Of a stretch of DNA of 64,000 nt, positions 9,301-34,133 are shown piece after piece. A program made the translations under genes and the position numbers. Each line of letters begins with the position of its first letter. Position 1 is the stretch's first letter. This DNA comes from Dictyostelium discoideum (Eukaryota). The stretch covers positions 4,000,001 through 4,064,000 of the forward strand of contig CM000150.2 of the NCBI GenBank assembly GCA_000004695.1. Reading direction: 5' to 3'. The notes beneath the pieces are model-generated. The model saw only the letters and a program-made list of their open reading frames with translations. It was not told where the DNA came from and made no database searches.

Positions 9301-9414
9301 ATAGTGAATTGTCGTTGTGGATACAGTTGAAATCTCCTGCGATAATAGATACATGTTGGGATTGGTTTTGTTTCTGGAATCGAACATGCGTCTGTTGACA
9401 TCACGAAAGAAAAG

Positions 9415-9497
9415 TCCGGCTTGCCAGATTCGAACTAGCAACCGATTGATCACTTTCTATACTACAGTCAATCGCGCTACCATTGCGCCAAAGCCGG
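9415..9497 (-). tRNA. tRNA-Tyr (anticodon GUA) with a roughly 11-nt intron 3' of the anticodon
   Basis: The minus-strand sequence is CCGGCTT TG GCGC AATGGTA GCGC G ATTGA CTGTAG[TATAGAAAGTG]A TCAAT CGGTT GCTAG TTCGAAT CTGGC AAGCCGG A, followed by a CTTTTC terminator. The cloverleaf pairs correctly, with GCGCAATGGTAGCGC in the D-arm and GTTCGAATC in the T-loop. A canonical intron after position 37 is expected for eukaryotic tRNA-Tyr. Confidence 0.8.
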
Positions 9498-18579: not shown

Positions 18580-21529
18580 TTATACATCTAAATTCCAAAT
18601 TGAATTTGCTAATTCATCAATTGTTTGATAATTTCTAAGTAATGGATTATGTCTTGCAGCAGTTGTAAAAGCATCACAATGATGAATTAAAGTATATTGC
18701 ATAGCTCTTTTAATGAAATTTTGAGGATTTTCATTATAATAATCTAACCAACTCTTTTCATTTTCTTTGTTTGAATTTGGTAAAAGATATTTTGATAAGA
18801 AAGATTTTAATCTAACTTTATCCAATGCGAAGACCGAGATATAAAGTGAAACCAATTCATACCAACGATCACCAATTTTTGAGTCACCCCAATCAATTAA
18901 ATATTTTGGATCCCAAATTTTAATAGTTTTCTTTACTTCAACAAGTTTACAATCTTGATCGTCATTGTTTTTGCCTTTTTGATTTAACTGTTTTAATCTT
19001 GACGCTAAAGAATTCTTAATACCTTTTTTAGCAGATTTTGAAGTTTTATTTAATTTTTTAATTTTCTCTAATACTATTATTTCAGAGGTTGATTCAATAC
19101 CTAAAACATTTTCATCAGTTAAATCTGCATGAATAAAACATGGATCCATTGAATAATCTATTAATTCAGTTTTATCAATTGGTAAATAACTAGCCAATTG
19201 TGAACGAAGATGTGGAGGTAAACCATTCCAATTCCAATGATTTGAAATATATTTTGAATCAAGTGATAATAATTGATTTTTCCAAGGTAACCATTTATCT
19301 TTCTTATATTCATTTAATAATGATTTAATATTATCATCAATTAAAATTGATTGTTTTTCATTATTTTCAATATTATTATTATTATTATTATTATCATCAA
19401 TTTCAATTGAATGAATTAATGATACTTTTTCAACTAAGAAATCAACTAAATTGTCATCTAATACTTTAATATCTTCTTCTTCATCATCTTCGTCATTCTC
19501 ATCATCATTTTCATCTTCTTCAGGTGGTGATGGATATGGATAAGGTAATGAATCTGGTACAGGTTGAACATCTTGTAAATTTAAAGTATCTTTTAAATAT
19601 TCTGTTACAATGTACGGCCATTTCCATTCACATTGTAATTTATCACCTAATAAATCTTTAATATTACCATATGATAATAACTTTGGAAATGTTGAATTTA
19701 ATTTTGAATTCTCTTTAATCTTTGAATATAAGAATAACTCTGTTGACCATGACTTTTCACCACCCAATTCTGAACAATATAATTTAATAACATATTTTTC
19801 ATCAACAATGAAAACTGGACTTTGACCTGAATTTGGCATTTCTAAATATAATGTTGATTCTTTTGGTGGTAATTTAATTTGTTTTGATTTTACTTTTAAA
19901 TCTGAATCATCATCCTCATCCTCATCATATTTTTTACGATTTTCTTCTTTTTTTTTTAATTCTTCTTCTTCCTTTTCTTCATTTTTATTAATATTTGTTG
20001 TATTTATAAGTTCATCATTATCATTATTATTATTATTATTAATTATAATTGGTTTTTCATTAAATTTTAAATTTGAATTATTTAAAATTGATTTAATAAT
20101 TAAATCCCAATAATCTGTATCATCAAATGAATGAGTGAATTGATCATTTTTAAATTCAAATTGATTGAATTTATTTTGAAAATCAGGACGTGAAGTTAAG
20201 AGATGTTTTTTAAAATCATCATAATCTTTTTTTTGATCATTTGCTAAATCGGAACAAACTTCATCGAAATTTTGAGAATTACAAAAGTTTTGAGTTACTG
20301 CAATCGATTGTTCCATATTTAAAACCATATGCCACCAACCACCTGGTACGAATATAGTTTCACCAGGTTCTTGAATACATTCAATTGGACGATAGTCTGG
20401 TGGTAGGTAAGGGTAAACCTCTAATAGCCAAAGTAGGGATGGAGGTGAACCGTAGATTTTATCAACTACTTCGTCCGACTCTACTGTGTATGGTGTGAAA
20501 TTGGGTGGATACATTAACCAACGCTTTCTGCCAGATATTAGCGAATTCCAGGCACTCGTGCCGGCAGGGTCGATGTGCCACGAAGCACCGCTTCTCTCTG
20601 GACCGATTACAATCCATCGGAAATGGGGTCTGTGCTCTTCGCCATTATATTTAAATAAATCTTCAGGAAAGAATTTAGGTATATTATAATCGTCCAATAG
20701 TGATGGCACTTTCTCGCCAAATGCCTGATCGAATACATACAATGGCTCCTCATCAGTCTGAGTCTTCATATATTGACAATAGTCCCTAAACGTCATTTGA
20801 ATACGCTTATTATCCTGATGTGATATCTTGAATACAACATCACCACATCTCTCTATCAATCTCTCCTCTGACCATTCATTCTTCTCCATCATTGGTGTAC
20901 CTCTCTGTGCATTCTTAAATATAACCGGTATCGATGGTATCTCATACTCCCTTTGGAACTCCTCAACTGTCAACTCATCACTCTCAATATGTTTAACATG
21001 TCCGAAATCAACACCATAGTCTTTAACCTTCATATGTCTTCTTAACCATCTCGTATAAACTTCATGTGAATAGAAATCTAAAGAAAATTAATTAGATTTA
21101 TTTATTAATTCATTCATTCATTCAATCAATATTTTAATGTTATAACTTACCTGGAAAATGTAATGGAATATATGGTTTTTTAAATTTATTAAAAGAATTT
21201 GGATAAAGATATGATAAAGCACTAATTTTCCAATTTTCAATATATTTTACAAATTCTTTTCTACCTTTAATCTCTCTTAGGAATGCATCTTTCCAAAGTC
21301 TATCATCACCTAATAAAATATAAAATGCTGGACTAACACATTGATATTTCAATAGTTCACTACATGTGAATTCATTGAAAACAACGTTCAATAAAATTTG
21401 ATCCTCTAAAATTGATAATGCACCCAATGATTTAGTTCTAAGATCTGTTTCTCCAATTACAACTTTGACACCTTTTGAATTTATAATTTCTTGTTTTTTA
21501 TCTTTTTTATCTGGTCTTTTATAAAATTG

Positions 21530-21580
<51 letters not shown>

Positions 21581-21604
21581 TAATGTGTTTTTAAGAACTA
21601 CCAT
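18580..21604 (-). CDS. Three-domain fusion protein of about 980 aa: F-box, JmjC (JMJD6/PSR-like cupin), and APH/choline-kinase-like phosphotransferase fold
   Basis: Exon 1 is 21604..~21151 and carries an F-box-like motif (LSILEDQILLNVVFNEFTCSELLKYQCVSPAFYILLGDDRLWK). A GTAAGT...ctttAG phase-1 intron follows. Exon 2 is 21077..18580. The JmjC motifs are HIDPAGTSAWNSLISGRKRWLMYPP and FVPGGWWHMVLN. The C-terminal region carries APH-like motifs (FIHADLTDENV, IDWGDS). Confidence 0.7.
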
Positions 21605-22419: not shown

Positions 22420-22909
22420 TTTAAATAATTCTTAGATACCCACCACAACAAGGTTACCCACCACAACAAGGTTATCCACCACAAGGTTATCCACCACAAC
22501 AAGGTTACCCACCACAAGGTTATCCACCACAACCAGGTTACCCAATGCAACCAGGTTATCCAATGCAACCAGGGTATGTAAATTTAAACAATTGTTTTTA
22601 TTTTATCTTATCTATCCCCCCTCTTCCCCCTCTTCCTTATCTTATTTTATTTTATTTTATTTTATTTTTTTTTTTTTTACCAATATTAATATTTATTTTA
22701 CTTTTAAATAATGTAGTGTTGTAGTTCAACCAAATATGTACCCACAAGGTCATCACACTGCTTATCCAGTTGGTTATGGTCATCATGGTAAATTCAAACA
22801 TAAGGGTTACAAGAAACATCACAAGAAACATAAGGGATTCAAAGGTTTCAAGAAAGGATTCAAAAAAGGATTCAAAGGTTTCAAGAAAACTTTCAAATAC
22901 AAACATTAA
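22273..22909 (+). CDS. Small Gly/Tyr/Pro/Gln-rich protein of about 125 aa: (GYPPQQ)n repeats and a lysine-rich (GFKK)n tail. Member 1 of a local three-gene family.
   Basis: Exons are 22273..22319, 22436..22573 and 22717..22909. Introns are phase 2, with GTAAGT/GTATGT donors. The protein is MSGYPNQYPHGYPQQG|YPPQQGYPPQQGYPPQGYPPQQ...PGYPMQPG|VVVQPNMYPQGHH...HKGFKGFKKGFKKGFKGFKKTFKYKH. The antisense ORF 22652-22906 in the track is an artefact. Confidence 0.55.
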
Positions 22910-23400: not shown

Positions 23401-23804
23401 ATGTCAAATCCACCATCCATTCCAGTGTATGTACCAAAAAAAAAAATTAAAAAATAAAAAAAAAAAAATAATTTACTAATACAAAAATTTAAATAAAAAT
23501 TATAGAAACACTGGGTTTGTTTTCAAAAAAAAAAAATTTTAAATTTAACATAATATTATTAAATAATTTAATTATTTTAACATTGTATTATTGATATAAT
23601 TTTATTTTTAAAATTAATAGATTAATTACACCAGATATGTATCCTCATGGTAAACATTCAAGTACTGGATTAACAGGTTCTCACCATAATAAAGGAAAAG
23701 GAAAAGGAAAAGGAAAAATAATGGGAAAAGGTTTTAAACATAAAAGAGGTTTAAGTTTTAAACATAATCCAATCTCAAAAGGAATTAAAAAAATTTTCAA
23801 ATAA
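23401..23804 (+). CDS. Small Pro/Gly-rich lysine-tailed protein (about 70 aa), paralog 2
   Basis: Exon 1 is 23401..23426 (MSNPPSIP). The intron has a GTATGT donor and ..aattaatAG acceptor. Exon 2 is 23621..23804 (LITPDMYPHGKHSSTGLTGSHHNKGKGKGKGKIMGKGFKHKRGLSFKHNPISKGIKKIFK*). The shared MYP.G.H core and basic tail match paralog 1. Confidence 0.5.
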
Positions 23805-24650: not shown

Positions 24651-24998
24651 CTACTCTTTCTTTAATCCAGTTATATTCCACCACCTGTAGGTGTAGTTCC
24701 AATGCCACAAATGGGTATGCCAGGATGTCCACCAATGGTAGTTCCAATGCAACCACTTCCAGGACAATACCCAATGGGTGCTCCTTATCCATACAGTGGA
24801 GGCTATGGCTATGGTTATCGTGGTCACAAATTTAAGAAATTTAAAGTTTGTATTTAAAATAATAAAAAAAAAAAAAAAAATCAACAAATAGATTTTAAAA
24901 TACTAACTTTTTTTTTTTTTTTATTAAAAATAATAAAAATAATATTAAATATTAAATAGGGTTATAAAGGTTTCAAAAAAGGATACTATCGTTATTAG
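24276..24998 (+). CDS. Small Pro/Gly/Tyr-rich lysine-tailed protein (about 100 aa), paralog 3, built from five exons including two 30-36-nt micro-exons
   Basis: Exons are 24276..24310, 24405..24434, 24518..24553, 24671..24845 and 24960..24998. Exons 1-3 each end ...ccaGG|GTAAxT in phase 2, and each encodes one ...YIPPP(Q)(V/M)GMPG unit. The tail is HKFKKFKGYKGFKKGYYRY*. The antisense ORFs 24565-24792 and 24651-24887 in the track are artefacts. Confidence 0.5.
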
Positions 24999-26153: not shown

Positions 26154-26253
<100 letters not shown>

Positions 26254-26324: not shown

Positions 26325-27243
26325 ATGTGCAGACCAGAAGAGTTATTCGTAGATAGAATTAGTCCACATTTTATTTGTCCGATTGGTAAGTAATAGGTTA
26401 TATAATATTTAGTGTACATTGATTATATATTCCTAATAACAATAATTTCATATTATCAACTACAACTATAAATTCAACCACAATTACAACACAAATGATA
26501 ATGATAATAATGATAATAATGATAATAATGATAATAATAACCAAATAAATAGGAGGAGGTGTTATTGAAGATCCAGTTGTAACACCATGTGGTCATACAT
26601 TTTGTAACCCGTGTTTAATAAAATGGTTACAATCTAGGAGACAATGTCCGACTGATAGATTACCAGTTACAGATAAACAGTTGATTCAAAATTGGTTAGT
26701 TTATTATTACACTTCCGAACTTACTGTTAGATGCGATCATTATAATAAAGGTTGTTTATGGACGGGTAAGTGGTGTGTATTAGGTAGTCATTTAACACAA
26801 TGTCAAGCTGCATTTTCAAAGATTAGATTTTGGGTAAATAATCATCATCATTATTAATTATTAATTATTATTTATTAATTAATTAATTAATTTAAAATAA
26901 CCAATTAAATAACTTTTTTATTTTTTATTTTTTTATTTATTTTATTATTTTTTGTATTTTTTAGTTAAAATATCATGTTCCATTTGGACAACAAATTAGA
27001 GTTACAGGTAATTGCGATCAATTGGGTAATTGGGACCCAAAGAAATCATTCCCATTAAAATTTTTGCAAGGTGATACATGGGAAGGTGAAATTATTTTGG
27101 CACAAAGTGGAAGAATAGAATATAAATATTGTATTAGTTATTATGATACTGGTGAATTGGTGTATTGGGAAGCTGGTCCAAATAGAGTTATTTTAATTTC
27201 TGGTTCTTCAATTTATAGAAGAGATATCTTTAAAAATCCTTAA
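26325..27243 (+). CDS. RING-finger E3 ligase-like protein with a TRAF-type zinc finger and a C-terminal CBM20 starch/glycogen-binding module (about 207 aa)
   Basis: Exons are 26325..26385, 26553..26833 and 26965..27243. The RING spans the first splice junction: CPIG|GGVIEDPVVTPCGHTFCNPCLIKWLQSRRQCPTDR. The TRAF-ZnF-like segment is CDHYNKGCLWTGKWCVLGSHLTQCQ. Exon 3 carries the CBM20 signature residues (VTGNCDQLGNWDP, GDTWEGEI, RIEYKYCI, YWEAGPNR). Intron 1 contains an (ATGATAATA)n minisatellite. Confidence 0.65.
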
Positions 27244-28748: not shown

Positions 28749-29268
28749 ATGAGCCAATCAACTGCATATATTATTTTAAATATTTTAGTTATTTTAGCTG
28801 GTTGTTTTATAACAGCATGTGGTATTTATTTATTCGTTAATGGTTTATTCCATAGTATTATTGGATTTGTACTTGGTATTTATTATCTTTTGGCTGGTGT
28901 TTGTATTGTACTCCTCGAAATCGTCTTCCCACAAAAATTAGTAAATCTTTTTGGTTTTTATACATATTGGTTTGGTAAAGGTGCTCTTATTTCTTTGTAA
29001 GTATTAAAAAAATTAAAAAAAAAATATTAATTATTAATTAAAAAAAAAAATATTATTTATTAATTAAAATTTTTTTTTTTTTTTTTTTTTATAATATAGA
29101 ATTGGTTTATTAATCCTTGGAAATAGTGGATTCTTTTTAGCAGCTGGTATTATTGTAATTGCCGTTGGTATTGTTTGTATGATTTTCCATTTCCTTTTAG
29201 GTTGTCCACGTCCATTAATAAATCGTAGTGTTGAAAGAAAACCAGAACCACAAGGTCAACATGCTTAA
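28749..29268 (+). CDS. Small polytopic membrane protein (about 138 aa, 4 predicted TM helices), function unknown
   Basis: Exon 1 is 28749..28996. A GTAAGT intron follows. Exon 2 is 29100..29268. Hydrophobic helices are ILNILVILAGCFITACGIYLFV, IIGFVLGIYYLLAGVCIVLL, IGLLILGNSGFFLAAGIIVIAV and GIVCMIFHFL. Confidence 0.5.
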
Positions 29269-29380: not shown

Positions 29381-30378
29381 TTATTTTAATTGTTGTTGTT
29401 GTAATTGTTCTAATTTAATTGATTTTAAATAATTTTTTGATTTTTCAGATTTTAAAAAATATTTAAATAAATTTGAAAATGGATAAAAATTTAATAATAA
29501 AAAAAAGTTTAATTCAAATGGTAAAGTTATTCTTTGTTTTCTATTTTCAATTGCAGATATGGTAGCTTTTGAAATTTGATCAATTGAAACTTTTGGTAAA
29601 TATTTTCTTATAATTGGAAATTGATCATCATTGATATTATTATTTTGGAAATAGTCAGTTTTAATTTCACCTCCAATCACTTCCAATATATTAATACCAG
29701 TACCTGATAAATCAAATTTTAAACATTGAGTCAAACCCCTAATTGCCCATTTCGAACACGAATATCCAACACAACCCCCGATTGGTACTGACGAAACTGG
29801 TGTATTGATAATCACAATGGTCCCATCACCATTAAGTAGCATTGGTTTTAGTAATGAACTTATCATATTGAATGTAATTGAATATGATGATGAAATCAAT
29901 TCATTACATTCTTTAAAAGATGTATCTTCAATATATTTCCAAGTACCTGATCCAGCACAGTTTACTAAAATTTCAACATATTGTCCAAATTTATTTGAAA
30001 TATTTTCAATTTCTTGTTTACAATTTTTAAAATCTTCTTCTTTAGTTAAATCTGAACAAATATAATAACATTTTTCATTTCCAAATTGAATTTTAATATT
30101 TTCAATAATATTTTTTAATTTATTTTCATTTCTACCAATTAAAATAACTTTACAACCTTTTTTAGCAAATTCATTTGTAATACCTAATCCAATTCCACTT
30201 TTAATTTTTTCAAATAATAAAATTATTAATAATTTTATTTTATTTTAATTATTTCAATAAAATTATAATAATAATAATATATATACCTTGATGCACCAGT
30301 TACTACAATTAATTGATCAGATAATTTAATTTTATTATTATTACTAAAAATTAAATTTTTTAAAAAACTAAATACCAT
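29381..30378 (-). CDS. Short-chain dehydrogenase/reductase (SDR) family oxidoreductase, copy A (about 302 aa)
   Basis: Exon 1 is 30378..30287 (MVFSF...LIVVTGAS-). A phase-2 intron follows. Exon 2 is 30197..29381. The Rossmann motif TGASSGIGLG spans the junction. NCAG is present, and the catalytic Y-x-x-x-K is present as GYSCSKWA. Confidence 0.7.
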
Positions 30379-30542: not shown

Positions 30543-31394
30543 TTATTCTTGTTTATTATTATTTATATTATGAAATTGTTGTTGTTTTAATTTAAATTGT
30601 TGTTGTTTTAATTTAATTTCAATTAAACGATTTCTTGATTTTTCAGAGAGTAAAAGATATTTTAATAAAATTGAGAATGGGAAAAAAGCGAAATATTTTG
30701 CAACATTTAACATTAATGGTAGGATTAACTTTTGTTTTCTATTTTCAATTGCTTTGATTGTACCTTTTGCAACTTGATCAACTGTTACCTTTGGTACGAA
30801 TTTACTGAGTAATGGGAAAGAGTCATCGCCGATACCGTTGTGTTGGAAATACTCGGACTTAGTTTCACCGGGTATCACCTCCAACACATTGACACCGGTG
30901 CCACGTAAATCGATTCTCAAACATTCTGTAAACCCTTTTAAAGCCCATCTCGAGCACGCATACCCAATACAACCACCCCAAACATTCACAGAAACTGGCG
31001 AATTAATATTCACAATAGTGCCCTCGCCATGAAGTAGCATTGGCTCCAATAGCAGTCTTGTCATATTAAATGCCGCGAAATAGGGTAACGACATCATATC
31101 ATTACATTCCTTAAACGATGTCTCTTCAATGAATTTCCAATTACCTGCACCTGCACAATTAACTAATATTTCCACATATTGACCATTATCATTTGAAATT
31201 TTACCAATCTCTTTTAAACAATTATTTAAATCTTCCTCTTTTGATAAATCTGCACTTATATAATAACATTGATTATTACCATATTCAATTTTAATATTTT
31301 CAATTATTTCTTTTAATTTATTTTCATTTCTTGCAATTAATATAACTTTACTACCTTTTTTTGCTAATTCTTTTGTAATTTCTAAACCTATTCC

Positions 31395-32293: not shown

Positions 32294-34133
<1,840 letters not shown>

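Follow-up and report, generated by a model that had tools for sequence, protein, structure and literature searches.

A dictyostelid protein joining a TRAF6/LNX-type RING-zinc finger head to a CBM20 module: a candidate glycogen-docked ubiquitin ligase

A three-exon gene on the forward strand of the analysed window (64,000 nucleotides of Dictyostelium discoideum DNA, contig CM000150.2, positions 4,000,001 to 4,064,000) encodes, at window positions 26325-27243, a protein of 206 residues in which a RING and a first zinc finger (ZF1) of the TRAF6/LNX type are followed by a carbohydrate-binding module of family 20 (CBM20). The spliced product was found to be identical, residue for residue, to DDB_G0270014 (EAL72357.1) of D. 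discoideum AX4 in the public protein collection, where it bears only the names "hypothetical protein" and "RING-type domain-containing protein". The literature that was searched contained no description of this protein, nor of its architecture. DDB_G0270014 is an uncharacterised, predicted RING ubiquitin ligase (E3), already present in databases, with an unusual, lineage-specific targeting module. We regard the domain architecture itself as virtually certain. For the function of the whole chain we favour, with a probability of roughly 0.55, a cytosolic E3 that would dock on glycogen and ubiquitinate glycogen-bound proteins.

The exon model was derived by enumerating all GT/AG donor and acceptor pairs and requiring an open frame, which left one model with consensus-like sites, running from ATG to TAA over 26325-27243 (+). 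The original prediction had placed a compact three-exon gene here, and its coordinates coincide with the annotated coding span of DDB_G0270014; it had also placed intron 1 within the RING, and the break indeed falls in the Gly21 codon, between zinc ligands Cys18 and Cys33. Only short, low-complexity open reading frames (ORFs) were found on the opposite (minus) strand at the locus. AT content is very high across the window, apart from short GC-richer islands, and the gene coincides with one of these. The features of the gene are as follows, with lengths in nucleotides (nt).

26325..26385, + strand: exon 1, from Met1 to the first base of the Gly21 codon, encoding Cys2 (26328-26330), His15 and Cys18 (26376-26378)
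26386..26552, + strand: intron 1, 167 nt, GTAAGT...TAG, phase 1, with a (ATGATAATA)n-type microsatellite inside
26385 + 26553-26554, + strand: Gly21 codon, split by intron 1 in the spliced model
26553..26833, + strand: exon 2, encoding the remainder of the RING to about 26659 (C33, H35, C38, C41, C52, D55, R56), the linker helix, the zinc finger and the start of CBM20
26732-26803 (exon 2), + strand: first zinc finger, TRAF6-type, C81/C88/H100/C104, from the TRAF6/LNX alignments
26819 onward (exon 2), + strand: first CBM20 strand, from K110
26834..26964, + strand: intron 2, 131 nt, GTAAAT...TAG, phase 0, at the W114/L115 boundary
26965..27243, + strand: exon 3, encoding the bulk of CBM20 (F121, W137, F147, W153, E166, K168, W182, N187)
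27201, + strand: end of CBM20 by Pfam (residue 193 of the CBM_20 match at residues 110-193)
27241-27243, + strand: TAA stop, after the C-terminal tail ...YRRDIF

Orthologous dictyostelid loci were retrieved, and each protein was mapped onto its own DNA to obtain the exon structure. In Polysphondylium violaceum only intron 1 is present, and a single exon holds residues 22-208, from the second part of the RING through the zinc finger and all of CBM20. In Tieghemostelium lacteum only intron 2 is present, at the same W114|L115 codon boundary, with residues 1-114 in a single exon; furthermore, a 1268-nt contig (L003) from the public read run ERR3252990 corresponds to this gene with its 61-nt intron exactly removed and with identical flanks, and is by its appearance spliced, transcript-derived T. 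lacteum mRNA. The fusion of the RING-finger head and CBM20 in one protein is real, because the junction lies within one exon in P. violaceum and a spliced contig exists in T. lacteum. A separate transcript for exon 3, the outcome that the original prediction had singled out as damaging, is contradicted by the same two findings. Acytostelium subglobosum has both introns as well as a third. The position of intron 1 is shared by D. discoideum, P. violaceum and Acytostelium but missing in T. lacteum, whereas intron 2, which P. violaceum lacks, is a phase 0 intron with an identical codon position in D. discoideum, T. lacteum and Acytostelium; the product measures 206-208 residues across five dictyostelid species. 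An annotation artefact, with exon 3 (CBM20) supplied by a separate gene and no true fusion, could draw on the look-up of D. discoideum transcript contigs for DDB_G0270014, which gave genomic contigs only and no cDNA; in view of the single-exon junction, the spliced contig, the shared position of intron 2 in three species and the constant length in five, it is extremely improbable.

The identical protein was present in several D. discoideum strain assemblies, in which the gene spans 910, 916, 949 or 1034 nt, compared with 919 nt here, and these differences are taken to be variation in the repeat length of the introns. Both introns are repeat-rich, and a long (AAT)n microsatellite lies at 26157-26250, just upstream of the start codon.

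The RING was recognised by several Pfam models above their cut-offs, namely zf-C3HC4_2 at residues 18-54 (E 1e-11, 44.9 bits for a cut-off of 27), zf-C3HC4 (39.5 bits, cut-off 21), zf-RING_2 (34.4 bits, 27.3) and zf-RING_UBOX (34.1 bits, 25.2). The U-box model likewise matched (E 1.3e-7, 32.1 bits, cut-off 21.4), and U-box 1 of Legionella LubX was the best PDB sequence match for residues 15-68. The seven conserved Cys/His/Asp ligand positions favour a zinc RING that has "CPI...DPV" features resembling a U-box. When a profile of the dictyostelid family was compared with PDB sequences, residues 10-109 aligned across both RING and ZF1 to LNX1 (5h7r, E 1.3e-12; the LNX1/LNX2 "Zn-RING-Zn" unit) and to TRAF6 (5vnz, E 2.2e-12). 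These alignments take in the C-P-x-D last ligand pair, the linker helix and the C-x6-C-x11-H-x3-C finger, whose C81, C88, H100 and C104 are invariant in the five dictyostelid orthologues. An AlphaFold2 (AF2) model of residues 1-108, computed from a 26-sequence alignment of N-terminal relatives, reached a predicted local distance difference test score (pLDDT) of 96.5. In Foldseek searches with this model, template-modelling (TM) scores over TRAF6/LNX-type RING-ZF1 structures spanned 0.81-0.87, with a root-mean-square deviation (rmsd) of 1.4-2.2 Å; the matches included TRAF6 (3hcu, 3hcs, 5vnz; TM 0.82-0.87, rmsd 1.4-1.9 Å), LNX1/2 (TM 0.84, rmsd 1.5-1.7 Å), the RAG1 dimerisation domain (TM 0.83, rmsd 1.8 Å) and TRAF2 RING-ZF1 (TM 0.82, rmsd 2.4 Å). 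By sequence profile and predicted fold, residues 1-108 are a TRAF6/LNX-type RING plus first zinc finger.

Such homology and fold uphold the TRAF-like zinc finger of the original prediction, although not by the route it had proposed: of the Pfam models it named, the zf-C3HC4 models and CBM_20 matched, whereas zf-TRAF (PF02176) gave no match to DDB_G0270014 at E<=1. In our own reading, the 60-position zf-TRAF model is longer than the single finger present; relatives with further zinc fingers do match it. Compared with the structures of TRAF6, LNX1 and LNX2 (PDB 3hcs, 3hct, 5vnz, 5h7r, 5din), DDB_G0270014 shares the same fold over about 100 residues, the C-x2-D last ligand pair (CPTD, for CPVD in TRAF6), and the linker helix followed by the C-x6-C-x11-H-x3-C finger. 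It differs from the TRAFs in lacking further zinc fingers, a coiled coil and a MATH domain, for which no Pfam match was found, so that CBM20 follows the head directly and ends the chain; from the LNX proteins, in lacking PDZ domains; and from both, in having glycine at the second zinc-ligand position and a conserved N-terminal Cys2 instead. DDB_G0270014 has a TRAF6-like head but is no TRAF proper, because it lacks the MATH domain.

In TRAF6 and LNX, RING-ZF1 is the minimal unit for binding and activating the ubiquitin-charged ubiquitin-conjugating enzyme (E2). The first zinc loop of TRAF6, in which its Pro-Ile pair lies, contacts Ubc13, and the residue directly after the last RING ligand is the usual "linchpin" position. 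In DDB_G0270014, P19 and I20 align with identical residues of TRAF6, P53 after the seventh ligand and the C52-x2-D55 pair (CPTD) match TRAF6 CPVD, and Arg56 directly follows the last ligand, being replaced by lysine in Acytostelium such that a basic residue is kept across the orthologues. The features expected of an active RING (P19-I20, P53 and basic residue 56) are conserved, which is consistent with a predicted E2-dependent activity. TRAF6 activity requires the RING and the flanking fingers (as summarised in PMC10181826), and in LNX2 the construct with flanking fingers is the active unit, the N-terminal finger being the indispensable one (PMC4741457).

The E3-type RING of the original prediction was supported by the Pfam profiles, yet it is not canonical. 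Seven of the eight usual ligands are present (C18, C33, H35, C38, C41, C52 and D55), and the second position is occupied by Gly21 (C-P-I-G, for C-P-I-C) in all five dictyostelid orthologues. Relatives of the RING-ZF1 head, taken from the search of representative proteins, were aligned and inspected for co-variation of ligands. In 32 of the 33 relatives without the second ligand, a cysteine was found in an N-terminal C-x-x-[ED]-x-[LI]-F motif, as compared with none of the 14 that retain C-x2-C, which mostly have glycine there (Fisher's exact p = 4e-11, uncorrected for shared ancestry). In DDB_G0270014 the motif reads C-x-x-E-x-L-F at the N-terminus and contains Cys2, a residue that is invariant in the 26-sequence alignment of diverse relatives; the first ten residues of the model of residues 1-108 have a mean pLDDT of 95. 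To judge from this pattern, Cys2 probably replaces the missing second ligand and completes zinc site 1. His15 was considered as the replacement and dropped, as its column varies in the relatives (E, H, N, D, S) whereas Cys2 is invariant. Site 1 of the RAG1 RING likewise draws ligands from an N-terminal extension. Besides dictyostelids, the variant with an N-terminal cysteine and no second ligand was found in a euglenid, in diplonemids and in metagenomic eukaryote-like proteins; a RING with an N-terminal cysteine in place of the second zinc ligand would be an undescribed variant, common to euglenozoan and other protist proteins. If the swap is true, it could alter how degenerate RINGs are judged to be active or dead. 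As a speculative aside, the Met-Cys start would, after methionine removal, make Cys2 a potential Cys/Arg N-degron, shielded if bound to zinc.

The same data bear on a further possibility, namely that loss of the second ligand inactivated the RING and left a RING-like scaffold serving as a glycogen-bound adaptor. The glycine in all dictyostelid orthologues and the additional score of the domain as a U-box would agree with this; however, conservation of seven ligand positions, of the E2-contact Pro-Ile and of Arg/Lys after the last ligand, together with the invariance of Cys2 in 26 diverse relatives, its co-variation with the missing ligand (32/33 against 0/14) and the confidently modelled N-terminal segment (pLDDT 95), make a dead RING quite unlikely.

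The C-terminal half was assigned to CBM20 by Pfam (CBM_20, PF00686) at residues 110-193, with E 5e-18 and 65.1 bits for a cut-off of 23.3, which disposes of the doubt, raised in the original prediction, whether the C-terminal exon would score as CBM20. Against PDB sequences, this half matched glucoamylase 6fhv (E 1.6e-8) as well as cyclodextrin glucanotransferases (CGTases), maltotetraohydrolase and beta-amylase, and also GDE5 (2z0b), STBD1 (8x8k, E 2e-3) and Aspergillus niger 1ac0. The signature residues that had been predicted are present, W137 in NWDP, W153 in TWEG, K168-Y169, and W182 in YWE, and W137, W153, K168 and W182 align with W543, W563, K578 and W590 of glucoamylase. For this mapping, a glucoamylase sequence with self-consistent numbering was aligned, and HMMER alignments to CGTase agree for site 1. 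In glucoamylase numbering, CBM20 binding site 1 comprises W543/K578/W590, and site 2 comprises Y527/Y556/W563, of which only the tryptophan is generally conserved, this site being variable in the family (PMC9920598). The predicted site 1 of DDB_G0270014, W137/K168/W182, is invariant in the five dictyostelid orthologues, as are N187 and E166, the equivalents of glucoamylase N595 and E576. At site 2, F121 and W153 are aligned and invariant in the five species, and the middle aromatic is F147 by pairwise alignment but Gly150 by the CGTase alignment (Tyr633 position). By its residues, glucan site 1 is intact in these five orthologues. Invariant columns across the five species amount to 59% in the CBM20 half and 56% in the RING. 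A linker of about 5 residues separates the end of ZF1, at C104, from the first strand of CBM20, which begins near I111; the Pfam model does not reach the conserved C-terminal tail YRRDIF.

Glycogen is the alpha-1,4-glucan store of Dictyostelium, and CBM20 is the only candidate targeting domain in DDB_G0270014. The protein is presumed cytosolic because no evident signal peptide and no hydrophobic or membrane span were seen by eye. In the mechanism we favour, CBM20 would dock the protein onto glycogen through site 1 (W137/K168/W182), and the RING-ZF1 head would recruit ubiquitin-charged E2, from which ubiquitin could be passed to lysines of particle-bound proteins, such as glycogen-metabolising enzymes, or of the ligase itself. 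The mark on proteins or particle might then lead to turnover, for example by autophagy/glycophagy. TRAF6-like dimerisation, if present, might bring two CBM20s together for stronger two-site binding, which is speculation. When CBM20 and HOIL-1L were chemically forced together, this was enough for glycogen ubiquitination and lysosomal delivery (PMC13345935).

Several points weigh against a glycogen-docked, active ligase. The second zinc-ligand position is glycine in every orthologue, and the case for compensation by Cys2 is one of co-variation only. Site 2 of CBM20 is only partly conserved, and the full-length AF2 model, computed from a six-sequence alignment, has a pLDDT of only 38.7 and is no guide to the domain arrangement. 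The genes adjoining DDB_G0270014 are unrelated to glycogen metabolism, and the literature searched holds no published experiment on the protein. Moreover, point mutations in the CBM20 binding site of RNF213 left its recruitment unchanged, and some CBM20s have no proven glucan role (PMC11549300).

The RNF213 precedent also lends itself to two other accounts of the CBM20. In one, the protein would be an alpha-glucan pattern-recognition ligase of cell-autonomous defence, the CBM20 reading glycogen-like glucans of microbes that have been ingested or exposed to the cytosol, instead of the amoeba's own, and the RING adding ubiquitin for xenophagy, as proposed for RNF213 and shown for TrafE of Dictyostelium. 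RNF213, the only other E3 known with CBM20, is an anti-pathogen ligase (PMC11549300); TrafE, a TRAF-like RING ligase, decorates damaged mycobacterial vacuoles with lysine-63-linked (K63) chains (PMC10181826); the N-terminal half of DDB_G0270014 is TRAF6-like; and relatives of its RING-ZF1 head bear DM9 and beta-helix/NosD, which are likewise modules of glycan type. Strong conservation of the CBM20 half, with 59% of the columns invariant and site 1 fixed in five species, contrasts with the positively selected CBM20 of RNF213, and the amoeba's own cytosolic glycogen would be a competing ligand, for which reasons we consider a role in defence unlikely. In the other account, the CBM20 has been re-purposed to bind another glycan, a phospho-glucan or a protein partner, and the target of the E3 is unrelated to glycogen. 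Some non-enzyme CBM20s, that of RNF213 among them, are without demonstrated glucan function (PMC11549300), site 2 is incomplete in DDB_G0270014, and the highly conserved YRRDIF tail extends beyond the Pfam model. With the three site-1 residues and the N595/E576 equivalents invariant, and the domain scoring far above the Pfam cut-off, re-purposing nonetheless seems improbable to us.

Another alternative concerns the acceptor, ubiquitin being attached to the glucan, by esterification of glucose hydroxyls, instead of to proteins. Glycogen is ubiquitinated in cells, and forced proximity of CBM20 and HOIL-1L is sufficient for this (PMC13345935). However, the enzyme known for this reaction, HOIL-1, belongs to the RBR ligases and has its own catalytic cysteine, whereas DDB_G0270014 is a simple RING without such a module, and the reaction would, as we infer, require an E2 itself able to form esters; we therefore hold glucan esterification to be very unlikely. 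More broadly, dictyostelids may have independently evolved a one-chain ligase for glycogen quality control or glycophagy, in which a minimal TRAF6-like head joined to CBM20 would ubiquitinate the proteins of glycogen particles or, with a suitable E2, their glucan, and so commit the particles to degradation, and which would carry a new RING ligand variant; taken in all its parts, this proposal is rather doubtful.

Among known systems, the closest in logic is the pair formed by malin (NHLRC1) and laforin (EPM2A), in which the CBM20 of laforin brings malin, a RING E3, to glycogen (PMC6116066, PMC11063907). The original prediction had cast the protein as a single-chain analogue of this pair. The recruitment logic supports that view, and the parts do not: in DDB_G0270014 one polypeptide stands for two, Pfam found neither a dual-specificity phosphatase domain nor NHL repeats, and the RING, unlike that of malin, is of the TRAF6/LNX type. 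DDB_G0270014 arose independently in Dictyostelia and is orthologous to neither malin nor laforin. RNF213 (mysterin), whose CBM20-fold domain was found by cryo-electron microscopy, is the only described E3 with such a domain in the same chain (PMC11549300). RNF213 is a giant with a dynein-like AAA+ core that ubiquitinates via an RZ finger, and its CBM20 was recognised by structure, is positively selected and has an unproven glucan role, whereas that of DDB_G0270014 is a strong sequence match with a conserved site 1. With HOIL-1 (RBCK1) and the engineered CBM20-HOIL-1L, DDB_G0270014 would share the placing of a ligase at glycogen, resembling a natural version of the design; HOIL-1, however, is an RBR ligase whose catalytic cysteine esterifies glucose units, and DDB_G0270014 is a plain RING relying on E2 chemistry. 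STBD1 (genethonin-1) is similar in being a non-enzymatic CBM20 protein, proposed as a tether of glycogen to a degradation pathway. Instead of a ligase domain, it uses a membrane anchor and a motif that interacts with the Atg8 family.

The distribution of the architecture was assessed by scoring a full-length family profile against 1.84 billion representative proteins and examining the top 150 matches, listed down to 73 bits. Only one representative, that of the dictyostelid cluster, matched over positions 1-206, besides a Synstelium fragment; the rest of the 150 were RING-ZF1 proteins with other tails or CBM20 proteins. Matches in several stretches were considered as RING + CBM20 candidates, and 10 of the 10 checked proved to be tandem CBM20 proteins without RING (DPE2-type glucanotransferases and algal multi-CBM20 proteins). 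The fusion was found in D. discoideum, D. firmibasis, T. lacteum, P. violaceum, A. subglobosum (which has a partial paralogue besides the full gene) and Synstelium. On the strength of these profile scores, the combination of a TRAF-type RING with CBM20 appears confined to Dictyostelia, because a two-domain protein would sum both scores and rise into the list, with the limit that a very different RING type fused to CBM20 could fall below 73 bits. The original prediction had called the architecture unusual; this held for the RING-finger-CBM20 combination, dictyostelid-only among the 1.84e9 representatives, but not for CBM20 on an E3 as such, for which RNF213 is a precedent. Elsewhere, the RING-ZF1 head with the Cys2/Gly swap was seen with either DM9 repeats or a right-handed beta-helix/NosD domain as fusion partner (proteins P0016, P0030 and P0031). 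DM9 and beta-helix/NosD modules are understood to be linked to the binding or processing of carbohydrates, a hint that TRAF6-like "glycan-reader" ligases may form a broader class.

Ubiquitin at glycogen is a current topic, through the parts played by malin/laforin in Lafora disease and by HOIL-1 in polyglucosan disease, through the RNF213 CBM20 and through the direct ubiquitination of glycogen reported in 2026. To our knowledge, ubiquitination at glycogen has so far been known only from animals, where it proceeds via large or multi-protein machines. An E2-activating head plus glycogen-binding module within 206 residues would be the simplest natural form of the idea; if the proposed role is true, DDB_G0270014 would parallel the engineered CBM20/HOIL-1L as a naturally occurring system and, in a non-animal lineage, would serve as a functional analogue of malin-laforin. 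It would bear on whether ubiquitin control of glycogen is older or wider than animals and on whether proximity alone is enough for a RING ligase. D. discoideum is haploid and genetically tractable, and mobilises glycogen on a large scale during development.

Around the gene, the downstream neighbour at 28749-28997 (+) is of the COPI_assoc family, its ORF in the window scoring 29.2 bits for a Pfam cut-off of 30. A COPI_assoc-family membrane protein also lies downstream in D. discoideum strains and in T. lacteum (L002 4666-5192), such that gene order is conserved on that side, whereas the upstream neighbours differ, MIF4G and KIN17 genes being present in T. lacteum and P. violaceum. Three ORFs of 51-57 residues, at 22736-22906, 23637-23801 and 24702-24854 (+), lie within the 4.7 kb preceding DDB_G0270014; they are rich in Gly, Lys, His, Tyr and Pro, have no Pfam match and could encode small secreted or structural proteins or be chance ORFs.

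Further upstream, a large ORF at 18583-21033 (-) has an N-terminal Cupin_8/JmjC domain and a weak phosphotransferase (APH) match near its C-terminus. It may relate to a Skp1-associated JmjD6-like protein. It is preceded by an ORF at 21143-21604 (-) that is F-box-like by eye and has no Pfam match. At 9414-9497 (-), ARAGORN reported a "tRNA-???" with a four-base anticodon, which is probably either spurious or a tRNA with an intron that bacterial settings caused to be misread. On the other side of the gene, tandem paralogue fragments of a short-chain dehydrogenase (adh_short) occupy 29384-29899 (-) and 30546-31175 (-), and a homologue of the splicing factor SF3a60/Prp9, with a poly-Asn tract of about 45 residues, is encoded at 32874-34130 (+).

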